From: Trueperaceae bacterium | Lineage (GTDB): Bacteria > Deinococcota > Deinococci > Deinococcales > Trueperaceae | Assembly (NCBI GenBank): GCA_965213705.1 | Contig: OZ243913.1 | Coordinates: forward strand, 1,760,001 to 1,824,000 | Direction: 5' to 3' | DNA length: 64,000 nucleotides | Part shown: piece by piece, positions 17,680 through 23,422 of the stretch | Position numbering within the stretch: the stretch's first letter is position 1 | Layout: each line of letters starts with the position of its first letter | The notes under the pieces: generated by a model | Told to the model about the DNA's origin: nothing | Seen by the model: the letters and a program-made list of their open reading frames with translations, nothing else | Database searches by the model: none | Position numbers and translations under genes: made by a program

Positions 17680-17809
17680 GGCTTTTACCTTCAGTCCGCA
17701 AAAGTTTATTCTCGCCCTGCTTGGACTAACAGAGGTCATGAACCGAAAAGGCTACTAGCGGCTATCTTTTTTTGAGACAAATTTTACGCCCTCCTGGTAT
17801 CATTATAAC

Positions 17810-17825
17810 TAACATATATATGTTA
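17810..17825. promoter_or_regulatory. Perfect 16-bp palindrome, putative operator
   Basis: TAACATATATATGTTA 24 nt upstream of the GGDEF-RHH start, flanked by CTGGTA copies. Confidence 0.6.
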
Positions 17826-17849
17826 CTGGTACTACCTAGGAGGCAAGAC

Positions 17850-18461
17850 ATGACCGCAAAAATTTCTCTCCTCTCTCGCCCCGCTTTCGAGGAAAAGTTT
17901 GCAGCCTTTGCCGACCAGCAGGTCAGCGTCGCCATGCTCGACCTCGACCATTTTATGCAAATCAACGAGGACTACGGCCACGCCGCCGGGGACGATGTTT
18001 TGCGGAGTTTGGAAAACGTCCTGACCGGCAGCTTGCCGAATGACGCCCTCGTCGGCCGTTTCGGGGGCGACGAGTACGCGGTCGCGCTGCCCGAAACGCC
18101 CGCCGAGGGTGCGCTTATCTTGCTGGAAGAAATCCGCAGCCACTTCTCGAGCCGCCAACCCGCTGCCAGCGTGCCGCGCAAGGTTCACCTGTCGGTCGGC
18201 ATCGCCAGCCGCCCGCCCCACGCCGAAACGGTACCCGAGTTGCTGCGCGCCGCTACCGAAGCGCTCTACCGCGCCAAGCGCGAGGGCAAAAGCCGCATCG
18301 CCATCTACACCGAGTCCAAGATGACCCTGAAGAGCAACTACTATTCCAAAGCGAGCTTAGAGCGCCTCACCAAACTCTCCGCCGCCCTCGACCGCACCGA
18401 GGCGAGCCTGTTGCGCGAGGCGCTGGACGACCTGTTTATCAAACACCGGGGCGAGTTGTGA
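17850..18461 (+). CDS. GGDEF-domain protein with C-terminal ribbon-helix-helix-like domain
   Basis: DLDHFMQINEDYGHAAGD, RFGGDEY, ALYRAKREGK; tail KMTLKSNYYSKASLERLTKLS...EASLLREALDDL; RBS AGGAGG. Confidence 0.85.
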   Translation: MTAKISLLSRPAFEEKFAAFADQQVSVAMLDLDHFMQINEDYGHAAGDDVLRSLENVLTGSLPNDALVGRFGGDEYAVALPETPAEGALILLEEIRSHFSSRQPAASVPRKVHLSVGIASRPPHAETVPELLRAATEALYRAKREGKSRIAIYTESKMTLKSNYYSKASLERLTKLSAALDRTEASLLREALDDLFIKHRGEL

Positions 18462-18685
18462 CCTATACCGAATTGCCGTCGCCCTGGCAGCTTTGTTCAG
18501 ACCTGGCTTGGGAGGCTTATCAGTCGGGTTCGCTGCCTATCGCGGCGGTCATCGTGGACGCCGAAGGTAAAGTGGTGGCGACCGGGCGCAACCGCATTGC
18601 TGAAAAACCGCGCCGCACCCGCAGGTTTGTAACGCCTCCCTGGCATACTCTTCCCTTGCGCGGCCCCACAACGAGCCGACCCTAG
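18458..18685 (+). pseudogene. Truncated nucleoside deaminase (TadA/guanine deaminase-like)
   Basis: LAWEAYQSGSLPIAAVIVD...GRNR N-terminus, but no HAE or PCxxC motifs before homology is lost. Confidence 0.7.
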
Positions 18686-18870
18686 ATACTTTCGGCGTCG
18701 GCGCGGTATGCTCGCCAGACAGGGCTACACCGTTGTAAAGACTGGATTGATGTAGAGCGGTGTGGACGAAGCTTGAGTAGCGGGGTTGCTGGCTGAGCAT
18801 TTGCTCGCCGTCGTTGGAGGTTCATGTCAGCTTCACAAACATCTGAAAAACCTTTAGGGCGTGTACGTTC

Positions 18871-19398
18871 ATGACGGAGGTGACCCCCGACGAGTCTCTC
18901 GTGCAACGCATGGCCGCTCGAGACGAAGACGCCCTGAGAGAGCTTCACCAACGCTACGCCCCTTACCTGAGCGCCGTTGCCAGGCGAATGCTGAAAGACC
19001 CCGACGAAGTTCAGCAGTGCGTGCAAGACGCGTTCGTCAACGCCTGGGACTACGCCGAACGCTACGACGTGGACAAAGCGAGCGCCAAAACTTGGCTCGT
19101 CACCATCTGTCACCGCCTCGCTATCAACCGCATTCGCGGCGGCAAACTGGACACCCTGCCGCTGCAACATTGGGACGCTCCCGTCCGCCATCCCGACCAC
19201 GTAGAAAGACTGTACGTCCAAGAAGCCGTCGCTACTTTGAGCGACGAGGACAGAGAACTTATCGAACTGGCTTTTTACCAGGGCTACTCGCACAGCCAGG
19301 TTGCCAAAGCCACCGGCAAACCGCTCGGCACCGTCAAGACGAAGCTGCGTAACGCGCTGCAAACGCTCCGTGAACACCTGACAGGAGGTGAGGCATGA
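18871..19398 (+). CDS. ECF RNA polymerase sigma factor (SigK-like)
   Basis: VQDAFVNAW, WLVTICHRLAINRIR, ELAFYQGYSHSQVA...PLGTVKTKLR. Confidence 0.93.
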   Translation: MTEVTPDESLVQRMAARDEDALRELHQRYAPYLSAVARRMLKDPDEVQQCVQDAFVNAWDYAERYDVDKASAKTWLVTICHRLAINRIRGGKLDTLPLQHWDAPVRHPDHVERLYVQEAVATLSDEDRELIELAFYQGYSHSQVAKATGKPLGTVKTKLRNALQTLREHLTGGEA

Positions 19399-20108
19399 CC
19401 GTCGACCGCGACTTACTTTTGGATTACGTCATGGGCAGCCTTACCCTGGAGCAAGAGTCCGAGGTGGCCGCTTACCTGAACCGAAACCCCGCAGAGGCTG
19501 CTTGGGTACGCGACATGTTCGAGACGTTGGCAGCGGTGGCGTTGGCCCAGGACCCGGCCGAGGTTGCCGCCGGTGCGGAGGACGCGCTGTTGGCGCGCAT
19601 TCGCGCCCGTCCTGAGTCGTCCGACGCCGCGCCCGAGCCCGCGCCGGTCGTGACCTTGCCGCGTGAAGCCGCGCCGCGCCGCTCACGCGGTGGCCCCTGG
19701 CTCGCCCTAGCTTTGGCCGCAGCCCTCGCCGTCGTTGCCTGGGTCGGTTTGCGGCCCGCGCTCGAGCGGTATCAGGTCGCGCAGCGTCTGGACCAGCTTT
19801 GCAGCGAAGCGGGTGTAAGGTGTGAAACGCTCGCAACCGACAGCAACCAGCCGCTCGGTACCTTGGCGCTCAAAGCCGACAACACGCTCTACGTCGTATT
19901 CGACCGCGACCCGCCCGCCGGGCAGGTCTACCAAGCCTGGGAAATCGTCGGCGGTACGCCTCAGTCTCTCGGCGTGTGGGACGGGCGCGCCCTGGCTATC
20001 GAACAGGCCGTGAGTACGGACAGCACTTTCGGGGTGTCTGTGGAGCCGCCCGGCGGCAGCCCGCAGCCGACCAGCACGCCCATCGTGGTGTTGCCCCTGG
20101 CCGGCTGA
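19395..20108 (+). CDS. Anti-sigma factor, RskA family
   Basis: Coupled to the sigma gene (ATGA overlap); one TM; YQAWEI, FGVSVEPPGGSPQPTS. Confidence 0.9.
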   Translation: MTVDRDLLLDYVMGSLTLEQESEVAAYLNRNPAEAAWVRDMFETLAAVALAQDPAEVAAGAEDALLARIRARPESSDAAPEPAPVVTLPREAAPRRSRGGPWLALALAAALAVVAWVGLRPALERYQVAQRLDQLCSEAGVRCETLATDSNQPLGTLALKADNTLYVVFDRDPPAGQVYQAWEIVGGTPQSLGVWDGRALAIEQAVSTDSTFGVSVEPPGGSPQPTSTPIVVLPLAG

Positions 20109-20354
20109 GGACACCCCCGAGTTTTCCGGCAAGTCTTCCAGCAAGTCTCCTAGCGGGCGCTCGAGCGAGAACCCGTCTGCTTTAGCGCCCGGAGCACAAT
20201 TTCAGCCCGGAGATTTTGCTAGCCTCAAAATACTGCGCTGCGAGAAACATCCAGTTCAGTTGTAGACGTGTAAGTACGGTTTGAAAAGGCGGAAAACGAA
20301 TCCGGTTCGTTCCGCCCCGACTGCAACAAAATTTGCGAATCGAAAGGAAAAAAC

Positions 20355-21746
20355 ATGAAAAAAGGGTTACTGATTTTAAGCCTGATGCTTATGCCCGTCG
20401 TGGCATACGCACAAGACACCGGCGGCGAGACCGGTGGCGCCATGATGGGCGACATGATGGTGACGGACGGCACCTACGAGGTTCAGTTGTCCGGCAGCCA
20501 AGAAGTGCCCCCGGTGATGACCGACGCGACCGGTTCGGCAACCTTTACCCTGACGGGCGACGCTTTGAGCGTCACAGGTGACTTTGAAAACCTCAGCAGC
20601 ATGGCTATCGAAGTTGCGGGCACACCCGCTCACATCCACATGGCCCCGATGGGTGAAAACGGCCCCGTCGTCATCCCCTTGAACGTGACCCTGGCCGAAG
20701 ACGCCATGAGCGGCATCTTTAGTGTCGACGCCACGCTCACGCCCGAGCAAACCGACGCCGTCATGGCGGGCAACTTCTACATCAACGTCCACAGCGAAAT
20801 GCACCAGGGCGGCGAGCTGCGCGGTCAACTCGTCTCGAGCATGATGGGCATGGACCAGATGGGCATGAACCAGGGCATGGGTATGGCCTTCGCCGACCTA
20901 GACACCGACATGAGCGGCTCGCTGAGCGAAGACGAGTTCAACGTCGGCATGGAGTCGGGCGGTATGATGGGCGCGTTCACCGACTTCGACACCGACATGA
21001 GCGGCGACATTAGCGAAGACGAGTTCAACAGCATGTCCGGCATGATGGACATGGACGGCGGCATGATGGGTTCCGGCCTGACGGTGGTCGACCCGGACGG
21101 CAACATGGCACCTATGGTTTTCAGCGACCTCGACACCGACATGAGCGGCACCGTCGACGAGAACGAGTTCAACGCCGGTATGGAGATGTCGGGCGGCAGC
21201 ATGATGGGCACACTGGCCGACTTTGACACCGACATGAGCGGTGACTTAAGCGAAGACGAGTTCAACGCGATGAACACCGGCATGATGGACACTGGCATGA
21301 CGGACATGGGCATGATGGGCGAAACCGGCGGCGCGATGATGGACGGCATGATGGGCATGACCTTTGCCGACCTCGACACCAACGCTGACGGCGGCATCGA
21401 CCAGATGGAGTTCGACACTGCGATGGGCATGATGGACGGCATGAGCTTTGCCGACCTCGATACCGACGGCAGTGGCATTATCGACGAAATGGAATTCGAC
21501 GCCGCGATGGGCATGATGAACGACAACATGTCGGGCGACGCCCTGACGGTCGTCGGCCCTGACGGTATGCCCCTTATGACTTTTGCGGACTTTGACACCG
21601 ACATGAGCGGCACTATCGACGAGGACGAGTTCAACGCCGGTATGGAGATGTCGGGCGGCACCATGACCGGCACCTTCAGCGACTTTGACACCGACATGAG
21701 CGGCGACTTAAGCGAAGACGAATACAACGCGATGAGCCAACCGTAA
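20355..21746 (+). CDS. Secreted CHRD-domain protein with eight EF-hand loops, Met/Asp-rich
   Basis: Signal peptide; LSGSQEVPPV...AHIH...FYINVHS...GELRGQ (CHRD); 8 DxDxSG/DxNxDG...E loops. Confidence 0.88.
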   Translation: MKKGLLILSLMLMPVVAYAQDTGGETGGAMMGDMMVTDGTYEVQLSGSQEVPPVMTDATGSATFTLTGDALSVTGDFENLSSMAIEVAGTPAHIHMAPMGENGPVVIPLNVTLAEDAMSGIFSVDATLTPEQTDAVMAGNFYINVHSEMHQGGELRGQLVSSMMGMDQMGMNQGMGMAFADLDTDMSGSLSEDEFNVGMESGGMMGAFTDFDTDMSGDISEDEFNSMSGMMDMDGGMMGSGLTVVDPDGNMAPMVFSDLDTDMSGTVDENEFNAGMEMSGGSMMGTLADFDTDMSGDLSEDEFNAMNTGMMDTGMTDMGMMGETGGAMMDGMMGMTFADLDTNADGGIDQMEFDTAMGMMDGMSFADLDTDGSGIIDEMEFDAAMGMMNDNMSGDALTVVGPDGMPLMTFADFDTDMSGTIDEDEFNAGMEMSGGTMTGTFSDFDTDMSGDLSEDEYNAMSQP

Positions 21747-21763
21747 AACACGGTTAGGCAGGC

Positions 21764-21801
21764 AAAAGCGGGACTCGGCACGTGCCGAGTCCCGCTTTTT
21801 T
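21764..21801. terminator. Bidirectional rho-independent terminator
   Basis: AAAAGCGGGACTCGGCACGTGCCGAGTCCCGCTTTTTT. Confidence 0.85.
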
Positions 21802-21914
21802 GTCTTGTTTTTGCCAAAGGGTTCTGCACAGGTTGTATAAGTTTGACTCGCACAAGCTCGAACCTGTCCCCAATAAAAAGGTCTCACGGGATTGTAATTG
21901 AGTCTCGGTACAAC

Positions 21915-22056
21915 CCAAAACCCAGACGAAACTCAATTCGTACCGTTGTGGACGAGCGTACTGAAAAAAGTTTTGAGGCGTCGGGTTGGGCGCGTAGGAA
22001 CTGGGCTTCTCAGGTTCTGGGAAAAGGACTATTACAGAGTTTCGTCCGGGTTTCAG
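21915..22056. mobile_element. 142-bp MITE related to the adjacent IS
   Basis: TIRs CCAAAACCCAGACGAAACTC / GAGTTTCGTCCGGGTTTCAG (17/20), similar to the IS ends. Confidence 0.75.
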
Positions 22057-22062
22057 TGCAAG

Positions 22063-23422
22063 CTGAGATCCGGACGAAATTCATCTTTGTGGAAAAAGAC
22101 GATGTGCAAGGGATAATAAGGCATCGTCACCGCCGACGAGAGGTGCGTACTGAGTGACTACAAGAAAAGAAGCGAGGTGCTCAAGCGCGGTTGAGAAGGT
22201 TCGGGGTCCGGGTCTACCCTTGGTATGGGTTTGACCCAACCGGGTAAGAAAGTCGAGCGCTTCATCCTCCTCGGCTACACCCAGGTCGTGCAAGAACGCC
22301 GCGGCTATCCAGGCGAAAGCTACAAGCGTCTTCAAAGCTTCAAACGACATGAGTTGCACAGTTTCCCAACCAAGACTCGACTTCGACCAGGCGAACAGGT
22401 CTTCTATCGCCCAGCGCTGCCGGTAGGTTTTCAAGAGACGTTCGAGCAGTTGCTGCTCTTCACCCTCGCGCAGCGTGAGGTTGGTGATGAGCACCCAACC
22501 TTTAGTTTTAAGCTTGGAGCGGACTTGCGCCACACATACCTCAAGCCCGAGCGCGTCTGCAAGCTCAACTTGAACCGCCGCTATAGCAACCGGCACAGGC
22601 TCGTGTTTGTGGCGTTTAGCGCTCGGGTCGAGCAAGCGTTTTTCGAGACTGGCGTTCGCCAGTAAAGGTGCAGACCCTAGCACCTTTGTAAGGTTGCTGG
22701 GGCGGTTGTTGAGCAGACACTTACGTTTCATGTGCTGCACGCGGGTCACGAAGCAGTCCCCCTTTTGGTGAATGTGCCGCATCAGCTTGAGGTTGTCGCC
22801 GGCCCTGTCGACAACCCACAGCAACCTACCTACCCCTTGAGCACGGAGCGCAGCCGTAACAGCGTCGATGGCTTGGCAATACGCTACGTTTGCGCTTTTG
22901 AAGCCCGGTTCCAGGGTAGAAAAGCTGTGGTGATAGACAATCGCCCTGACGCCACTCTCGCCGATAGCCAGCACGTTCAAGGTGTGAAAGCCTGAGACGG
23001 GTTCGCCTTCCAAACTTCTGACCGTGTCCAGGTGTTCCAAACAGCTTGCAAACGGTTTACGCAGGTCGCTTTCGTCCATAATCAGTAGCACCTCGTGTTC
23101 ACCCTGCAGGCGTTTAGCACCTTCTTTTGTCAACTGAGTCGTAAGACGGTCTGCACTCAGGTCAGCCCGGTCATTCTGGTTATGCACCAGGCGACGGACG
23201 CGCCTTTCGGCGTGCAAGCTCGTTCCCAAGCTGCTACTGCTTTTGGCAATTCGGCTAACCCTCAAATCCCCGCTGCCGATAATGCCCTGCAACGTACCCA
23301 CAAAACCATCGAATAACCTTCTGTCCTTGAACAAGTCTTTGTAACCAGCAGCGAACGTTTCCAGTTTGGATAGCTTTGTTTGCATAATGCTCTGGTTATA
23401 CAGACTTTTGTCCGGTCAACAG
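22063..23422 (-). mobile_element. IS4-family insertion sequence
   Basis: Imperfect TIRs CTGAGATCCGGACGAAATTC / CTGTTGACCGGACAAAAGTC (14/20); flanks TGCAAG / TGCAAC. Confidence 0.8.
22081..23385 (-). CDS. DDE transposase, IS4-like
   Basis: IMDESD, VVDRAGD, YRQRWAIEDLFAWSK (YREK-type). Confidence 0.9.
   Translation of the reverse strand: MQTKLSKLETFAAGYKDLFKDRRLFDGFVGTLQGIIGSGDLRVSRIAKSSSSLGTSLHAERRVRRLVHNQNDRADLSADRLTTQLTKEGAKRLQGEHEVLLIMDESDLRKPFASCLEHLDTVRSLEGEPVSGFHTLNVLAIGESGVRAIVYHHSFSTLEPGFKSANVAYCQAIDAVTAALRAQGVGRLLWVVDRAGDNLKLMRHIHQKGDCFVTRVQHMKRKCLLNNRPSNLTKVLGSAPLLANASLEKRLLDPSAKRHKHEPVPVAIAAVQVELADALGLEVCVAQVRSKLKTKGWVLITNLTLREGEEQQLLERLLKTYRQRWAIEDLFAWSKSSLGWETVQLMSFEALKTLVAFAWIAAAFLHDLGVAEEDEALDFLTRLGQTHTKGRPGPRTFSTALEHLASFLVVTQYAPLVGGDDALLSLAHRLFPQR

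Follow-up and report, generated by a model that had tools for sequence, protein, structure and literature searches.

A SigK-like sigma factor/RskA module in a Trueperaceae bacterium and its predicted target, a CHRD protein with a candidate three-histidine copper site

The SigK-RskA system of Mycobacterium tuberculosis, from group ECF19 of the extracytoplasmic function (ECF) sigma factors, and the systems of group ECF18 share a common plan: the sigma factor gene is followed by one for a one-helix RskA anti-sigma factor, transcription is autoregulated, and the -35 element contains ATC (PMC7826278 and its supplement, PMC7509140). The ECF18 promoter motif is given as TGCATCTT / CGTA (PMC7826278 supplement), and DUF4331 and fasciclin proteins are named as group neighbors (PMC7826278 supplement, PMC7509140). 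Two proteins of Deinococcus radiodurans are also close to what we describe. DR_B0118 is needed for desiccation survival and its loss sensitizes the cells to desiccation (PMC6300522); the protein is described as a nucleotide/metabolite phosphatase that acts on damaged nucleotides (PMC11616004). DR_0644, in the SDBC structure (PDB 8ACA), has a superoxide dismutase (SOD) barrel with three His residues and was proposed to be a Cu-only SOD (PMC9823218). Here we analyze a locus in a Trueperaceae bacterium in which an ECF sigma factor, an RskA anti-sigma factor, and a 463-residue exported protein with a CHRD domain and eight EF-hands are encoded in succession. It lies in a 64,000-nucleotide stretch (GenBank assembly GCA_965213705.1, contig OZ243913.1, positions 1,760,001 to 1,824,000, forward strand), hereafter the window; coordinates are those of the window, on the plus strand, unless they are assigned to the genome, which is 4.25 Mb long, 61% GC, and 98% complete, with a single relative in the same genus (G001). 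An original prediction, made from the sequence alone, had proposed these three genes and their domains, and all of them are borne out.

The sigma factor gene (18871..19398) encodes 175 residues with regions 2 and 4 only (Sigma70_r2 and Sigma70_r4_2 domains). Its stop codon is overlapped (ATGA) by the start of the anti-sigma gene (19395..20108), which lies at +1 and encodes one hydrophobic helix, read from the sequence, and an extracytoplasmic RskA_C domain (E 7e-18; NF052375, 151 bits against a cut-off of 100). Together with a computationally identified autoregulatory promoter, with ATC in the -35 and CG/TG in the -10 element, these features are those of ECF18/19. The best NCBIfam matches of the sigma factor, PRK13919 and the SigK model PRK09646, both fall below their cut-offs. 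The two Cys in region 4 that mark the SigK subgroup and ECF18 are missing, the only Cys being at positions 50 and 80, and this pair is not defining for ECF19 overall (PMC7826278 supplement). As in the SigK-RskA and ECF18 systems, fasciclin appears in the predicted regulon, and a protein of this genome matches MPT70 (E 4e-15); unlike them, the locus combines a sigma factor without the region 4 Cys pair with a GTGTA -10 element and a cargo of CHRD and DRB0118-like proteins. CHRD goes unmentioned in the parts of the ECF-group supplement covered (PMC7826278), though other parts may mention such a context. We conclude that the autoregulated SigK-like ECF/RskA pair is a real and well-supported regulatory module with a rare cargo architecture, of the SigK/ECF18-19 kind, and that it likely controls a desiccation or oxidative envelope regulon.

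The anti-sigma factor carries the predicted C-x6-C pair (C136 and C143; 19800..19823) directly past its hydrophobic helix. The pair recurs in 11 of 21 family orthologues (once as C-x4-C) and in none of the 22 orthologues from genus g25, probably Deinococcus. We rejected it as an essential sensor because it is absent from 10 of the 21 orthologues, and such loci (L074, L075, L078) retain both the promoter and the CHRD cargo. The genome encodes two further ECF sigma factors, one of them coupled to RskA. A third ECF sigma factor (genome 475409-476196, L090) is 48% identical to the one described here, and its anti-sigma frame is short and has no RskA_C match.

The motif AAACATC-N15/16-CGTGTA had been noted before the sigma gene (18837..18865; -35 ACATCT, -10 GTGTA; 5 nt 5' of the ATG) and, as a second copy, before the exported-protein gene (20245..20272; 82 nt 5' of its start). 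Both predicted promoters are there, and the exact motif is found twice in the window, whereas 100 shuffles gave a mean of 0.00; it has no third match in the entire genome. As written, the motif is narrower than its conservation warrants: the core that relatives share is (A)CATCY-N15/16-GTGTA, and the C preceding GTGTA is not conserved. A search around the locus revealed no sigma-70-type promoter. Downstream of the second site, the leader of the CHRD gene may form a hairpin (20288-20316, by eye).

Relatives of the anti-sigma factor were found in 31 of 127 family genomes, and the best 20 loci were read. The unpublished genome G111 was excluded from locus counts and remains within the 31/127 tally and the Ferritin_2 locus fetch described below; the own-genus locus (L060) was excluded from matrix training and from the count that follows. 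In 17 of 19 family loci, (A/C)ATC(C/T)-N15/16-GTGTA lies directly 5' of the sigma gene, while in the other two the site faces the opposite way, toward a ferritin-like gene. Both boxes are fixed and the spacer sequence varies freely, and the pattern fits the published ECF18/19 motifs (PMC7826278 supplement). By eye, the start codon lies 5 or 8 nt past the motif in 10 of the 17 loci, which, with the 5 nt seen here, is consistent with a leaderless sigma mRNA. A second copy of the core sits between the anti-sigma gene and the next gene in 10 of the 20 loci, with variants in three more, and the promoter of the CHRD gene is retained in G001 with an altered spacer. Scored on a matrix from other genera, the sigma promoter reaches 25.3 bits and the CHRD-gene promoter 21.1 bits. 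With the 29-site matrix (other genera), ten sites of at least 21 bits occur in this genome against 0, 1, and 0 in three triplet shuffles, and some of the ten may be chance matches because such shuffles ignore AT-rich intergenic DNA. Simple patterns discriminate poorly: the core regular expression has 27 matches in this genome against 9-17 in shuffles, and the loose pattern MATCY-N15/16-GYGTA in G001 has 45 against 32 in the control, barely higher, so only high-scoring or conserved sites were taken to count. Judged from these comparisons, the motif behaves like a family-wide promoter of the sigma system, and the proposal of an autoregulated SigK-like pair driving an exported stress protein is upheld.

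Behind the sites of at least 21 bits are the sigma gene, the CHRD gene, two Ferritin_2 units, and genes for a DUF3298/PdaC protein, a cupin, and a solute-binding protein; others precede a possible small RNA and a broken regulator gene, and one is probably a chance match. The two Ferritin_2 units comprise three genes with twin-Arg-like leaders (by eye). The original prediction had named fasciclin and msrPQ genes behind the motif as support for a redox model. A fasciclin fused to a CHRD-like domain does have a site, at 16.2 bits. The MsrQ family (PF01794), in contrast, had no match in this genome, which is 98% complete; the control search matched in 5 of 14 genomes. Three PF00174 genes, which are candidates for MsrP, are not among the top motif genes. 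We rejected msr and sodC genes as regulon members, since they have no motif.

As an independent test, 29 of 30 fetched Ferritin_2 loci were scored with a matrix built only from the 17 sites upstream of sigma genes. In genomes whose sigma locus had been read, 15 of 18 loci have a site of at least 16.7 bits, against a maximum of 14.8 bits in the reverse-strand control. Among the remaining genomes, grouped as having no close orthologue, a site is present in 6 of 11 loci; this group is not a clean negative because two of its genomes (G142 and G143) carry the cassette. The three ferritin-like proteins of the predicted regulon are 46-50% identical to a ferritin-like protein of D. radiodurans plasmid MP1, which, judging by its location and annotation, we treat as DR_B0118, and so resemble the DRB0118/pcC13-62/Tar-fer ferritin-like phosphatases (PMC11616004). 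Their genes are located outside the window. In genus g25, the sigma orthologue has a ferritin-like gene no more than 1.5 kb away at 14 of 22 loci. Among the predicted members of the regulon, DRB0118-like ferritin-fold proteins are the most conserved. Our literature search found no paper naming a regulator of DRB0118-type ferritin-like proteins.

Several other motif-led loci were observed. A 27.4-bit site, kept in G001 (L104) with an altered spacer, precedes a structured stretch of about 110 nt (genome 2741015-2741125, plus strand; L086:2015-2125; z -3.5) that ends in a hairpin and a T-rich run and has no Rfam match; this stretch is a candidate sigma-dependent small RNA. The top site of the genome (28.2 bits; genome 4017790, minus strand; L084) precedes a gene broken by in-frame stops, and in G057 the same motif precedes an intact regulator with a LuxR-like C-terminus (by eye). 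At genome 1494333-1496671 (minus strand; L080), tatA- and tatC-like genes come after one of the motif-led ferritin-like genes, and sigma loci of g25 (L139, L154) have a divergent tatA-like gene (all by eye), hinting that twin-arginine (Tat) export is tied to the regulon.

The exported protein is encoded at 20355..21746. It begins with a predicted Sec signal peptide of 19 residues (20355..20411), read from the sequence, which ends in AYA before a Q and has no lipobox. The CHRD domain follows (residues 42-159; 20478..20831) and is a clear member of PF07452 (105.3 bits against a cut-off of 24.1, E 5e-30). Folded alone with 142 sequences, it gave an eight-stranded Greek-key barrel of the Cu/Zn-SOD type with a predicted local distance difference test (pLDDT) score of 97.6. 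VIA-align superposed this model on Cu/Zn SOD end to end (Z 10.1, root-mean-square deviation (rmsd) 3.0, 106 residues), and in a wide VIA-align search the top 12 of 48,161 chains all belonged to the SOD family (Z 9.6-7.7, rmsd 2.9-3.4, 101-111 residues). The matches listed by Foldseek were all Cu/Zn SODs, with E values above 0.001 throughout, and a search of the ESM Atlas gave no usable match; the SOD-fold assignment is therefore that of VIA-align.

Three His residues, H93, H95, and H146 (20631..20792), form what we predict to be a metal site. They are conserved in 142, 141, and 142 of the 142 CHRD sequences, respectively, and Y142, N144, E154, R156, and Q158 are conserved in at least 96% (R156 in 141 of 142); the conserved residues follow an i,i+2 pattern, which suggests that they lie together on a single face of a sheet. 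A global hhalign comparison with SodC, at a probability of 3-6%, sets the three His on SodC His that correspond to SOD1 H46, H48, and H120 (ligand numbering from PMC13017621), with the Zn loop deleted. The equation of R156 with SOD Arg143 was set aside; in the same low-probability alignment R156 seems to fall at the position of Cys146, three residues later. Neither the four Cu-binding His nor the intramolecular disulfide of the SOD families was found, which places CHRD outside those families, yet the domain may work as a copper site.

Described proteins offer several points of comparison. DR_0644, the nearest precedent, ranks 15th in the structural search (Z 7.3, rmsd 3.2, 92 residues) and, like CHRD, is an SOD-fold domain of the envelope with H-x-H...H, no fourth His, and little of the Zn site (PMC9823218, PMC12362111); the Arg is missing from DR_0644 and seems out of register in CHRD. 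It differs in being part of an S-layer complex, in having no described Met/EF-hand tail, and in that its SOD activity is disputed. Neither the CHRD profile (at E up to 10) nor two CHRD-like proteins of this genome matched DR_0644 in sequence. Cu/Zn SOD and the fungal Cu-only SOD5/CSRP proteins share with CHRD the eight-stranded barrel and the extracellular location, and SOD5 resembles it further in having neither a Zn site nor a long electrostatic loop (PMC13017621); unlike all of these, CHRD has three rather than four Cu-ligand His, no disulfide, and no identified E110/D113 pair. The CHRD domains of chordin (PDB 9RD6) belong to the same Pfam family (profile match E 2e-14) and have an SOD-like fold, but they have lost the His that the bacterial domains keep, and no metal was seen in them (PMC13382577).

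Further CHRD genes were observed in other settings. The CHRD-like domains of three proteins of this genome (2403607-2404512, minus; 1003452-1004375, minus; 2274782-2275942, plus) contain H-x-H...N-x-H, finish in an SOD-like 'ACG', in some cases have two Cys, and match the CHRD profile by hhalign at 97%; they are apparent intermediates between CHRD and Cu/Zn SOD. In Burkholderiaceae, a CHRD gene lies directly 5' of a Cu/Zn sodC in one locus (L259:4923-5997), and CHRD lies near an egtD-like methyltransferase gene in 6 of 39 loci (L255, L256, L258, L265, and L273 among the loci named).

Beyond the CHRD domain, the tail (residues 161-463) has 56 Met, 50 Asp, and 46 Gly and is devoid of Lys and Arg, the composition that had been claimed for it; K2, K3, and R156 are the only Lys or Arg in the whole protein. 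Its 70 Met amount to 15.1% of residues, against a proteome mean of 1.73%, ranking second among 3664 proteins on crude gene calls. By pattern scoring and Pfam, eight EF-hand loops in four pairs lie among Met-rich linkers (20901..21722). The 12-residue loops start at 183, 212, 260, 291, 341, 369, 414, and 445, with a spacing of 28-31 within pairs, and all eight are canonical for Ca2+ binding (D1, D/N3, S/D5, G6, E12). Position 2 is Thr in every loop. Lanmodulins are recognized by Pro at this position; with no Pro and a LanM score of 40.7 bits against a cut-off of 135, membership in that family was rejected, and the lanthanide binding raised in the original prediction is unsupported. The XopAW effector family was also rejected (NF041410, 93.9 against 120 bits, matching on the EF-hands).

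Within the cargo, CHRD is the conserved core. The CHRD gene follows the anti-sigma gene in 8 of 20 family loci, and in three other genera its cargo proteins are Met-rich in 7 of 7 cases (6.7-17.9%) and have EF loops in none. Other relatives carry unrelated cargo: DUF7282-like repeats or, by eye, CAP-like and DUF4331-like proteins. Of 44 homologues, 5 combine CHRD with EF-hands, including one that is nearly identical to this protein, and a search with the tail alone added no CHRD fusion (both searches covered proteins of 254-811 aa). Outside the family, sigma-RskA-CHRD occurs in 5 of 38 CHRD loci from other lineages, all in Bacteroidota and all with ATCC-N16/17-CGTA in the gap; the four loci scanned have four CHRD domains each. 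These comparisons point to an old sigma-RskA-CHRD module, with Met enrichment as a feature of Trueperaceae and EF-hands that were acquired recently, and CHRD with eight EF-hands looks like a rare, lineage-specific decoration of a more general module. Synteny of CHRD with the ECF pair extends beyond the family; the EF-hands, like the anti-sigma Cys pair, are present here and not conserved across the system. Metal binding by the exported protein is plausible. What had been overlooked is the predicted SOD-fold barrel of CHRD, with its three near-invariant His, and the DRB0118-like members of the regulon. The earlier interpretation is supported in part.

These observations lead us to propose that the ECF/RskA pair switches on its own gene and a small set of envelope-protection genes, that CHRD has a three-His copper site, and that the Met-rich tail supplies or buffers Cu(I), a combination that we consider evenly balanced between right and wrong. 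An envelope signal, likely drying or oxidative stress, would inactivate the anti-sigma factor, by regulated proteolysis if the analogy with RskA holds. The freed sigma factor would amplify itself from its predicted leaderless promoter and transcribe the CHRD gene, two operons for Tat-type DRB0118-like ferritin-fold proteins, the fasciclin fusion, and the DUF3298 protein. Outside the cytoplasm, CHRD would bind copper at H93/H95/H146 and act on superoxide or buffer copper. The chemistry of Met with Cu(I) is established, and the Met clusters of the tail may serve CHRD as a Cu(I) supply or buffer; the EF-hand pairs, as a recent add-on, would bind Ca2+ and order or anchor the acidic tail. Our confidence differs between the parts. 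The regulation as proposed (sigma factor, promoter, positive feedback) is very probable; drying or oxidation as the inducing stress, somewhat favored; copper binding by CHRD through its three His, favored by a small measure on the predicted model; and catalysis by the domain, rather unlikely.

A number of observations weigh against this proposal. On the regulatory side, the sigma factors of g25 use a different promoter, no such motif was seen by eye upstream of DR_B0118 in D. radiodurans, one of the four ferritin-like genes of this genome has no site, and none of its three Sod_Cu genes, msrA, or msrB has the motif upstream; the two additional ECF sigma factors also make cross-talk possible. 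On the copper side, the hhalign homology of CHRD with SodC is not significant, R156 appears in its register to fall at Cys146 and not at Arg143, and CHRD is missing the Zn loop, the disulfide, and the bridging His that would be the fourth, the protein having no Cys at all. For DR_0644, copper was predicted and not seen, and activity was assayed on the entire complex (PMC9823218); its SOD activity has been doubted for these same reasons (PMC12362111). Domain II of CCS keeps three of the four His and is unable to bind Cu (PMC13017621), chordin CHRD domains bind no metal (PMC13382577), and deletion of a fungal CHRD gene caused no sensitivity to paraquat or H2O2 (PMC12825985). Single-domain CHRD proteins have a median Met content of 2.4%, with at least 8% in only 2 of 120.

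The same regulon could instead deliver a non-catalytic protectant, in which a mostly disordered, hydrophilic, Ca2+-binding tail shields the envelope during drying and CHRD is a chordin-like scaffold or ligand-binding barrel. The full-length AlphaFold model, too poor to interpret, has a pLDDT of 45, with most of the tail below 50 (from an alignment of five sequences), and [ED]TGG linkers like those of the tail occur in nine proteins of this genome, six of them Met-poor; the exchange of unrelated cargo among relatives, the link between low-complexity proteins and desiccation in Deinococcus (PMC6300522), and the metal-free chordin domains (PMC13382577) fit this explanation as well. It leaves unexplained, however, why H93, H95, H146, Y142, N144, E154, R156, and Q158 are 96-100% conserved across phyla when chordin has lost the His, and we regard it as possible but unlikely. 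Three other exported proteins of the genome have ETGGAMM-type linkers and no motif: a 193-aa EF-hand paralogue described below, a 217-aa Met-rich protein (genome 1415002-1415655, plus), and a fasciclin-8xEF-fasciclin protein (genome 136642-138543, minus).

The original prediction had made the Met-rich tail its main point, as a sacrificial sponge for hypochlorous acid (HOCl) and other oxidants or for Cu/Ag, with the Cys pair of the anti-sigma factor as a redox sensor. Met-rich HOCl scavengers under ECF control do exist, as in MrpX/SigF of Azospira, and the high Met content of this exported protein, its retention in the cargo of other genera, and a Cys pair outside the membrane in about half of the orthologues all agree with such a role. 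A recyclable sponge is nevertheless weakly supported, because MsrQ was not found and msrA and msrB have no motif and, by eye, no signal peptides. Where the Cys pair is missing from the orthologue, the promoter and the CHRD cargo are still present. The 193-aa EF-hand paralogue (genome 746280-746861, minus), which has two EF loops and, at 17%, the highest Met content in the genome, scores 3.0 bits and so has no motif. We therefore consider the sponge improbable. Less probable again, to the point of being very doubtful, is a Ca2+/Ln3+-sensing loop in which the EF-hand protein reports to the sigma factor, as proposed for Caulobacter CaBP/SigV. That system also ties an exported EF-hand protein of the periplasm to an ECF sigma factor (PMC13171946), and all eight loops here are canonical; CaBP, however, has 133 residues, three EF-hands, no CHRD domain, and a different gene arrangement (PMC13171946), none of the seven scored cargo proteins of the same cassette in other genera has EF-hands, CHRD with EF-hands is confined to 5 of 44 homologues, and the LanM and XopAW models score below their cut-offs.

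The unit is closed by a terminator-like intrinsic hairpin of 16 pairs with a T run (21764..21805). Directly after it, on the minus strand, is an IS4/IS701-type transposase (22037-23385) with a long inverted repeat (22037-22082). Just 5' of the sigma promoter, a short open reading frame (18458-18685) resembles the start of a nucleoside-deaminase-like gene and stops early, probably as a remnant (by eye); before it, a GGDEF domain is joined to a C-terminal ribbon-helix-helix-like segment (17772-18461).

Our literature search, to which subscription papers were mostly closed, found no paper on the CHRD/EF-hand/ECF-RskA architecture or on metal binding by bacterial CHRD; what it did find were a CHRD protein mentioned as regulated by iron or dust (PMC5776111) and a cold-regulated one next to a catalase-related peroxidase (PMC7522526). 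In the literature searched, then, bacterial CHRD domains have no assigned function, and this locus offers a regulator with its promoter, together with a small domain that is well predicted and whose candidate residues can be named. A wider and still speculative reading is that bacterial CHRD domains are widespread, uncharacterized, minimal three-His copper enzymes on an SOD barrel without zinc or disulfide, sent outside the cell under a SigK-type switch from Deinococcota to Bacteroidota, and that here the domain would carry a Cu(I) reservoir, the Met tail, and a Ca2+-responsive scaffold within a desiccation regulon that includes DRB0118-type phosphatases. For Trueperaceae, the locus predicts a sigma factor and a promoter for DRB0118-type desiccation proteins, so that two open questions, the function of bacterial CHRD and the regulation of DRB0118-type genes, gain a direct test.

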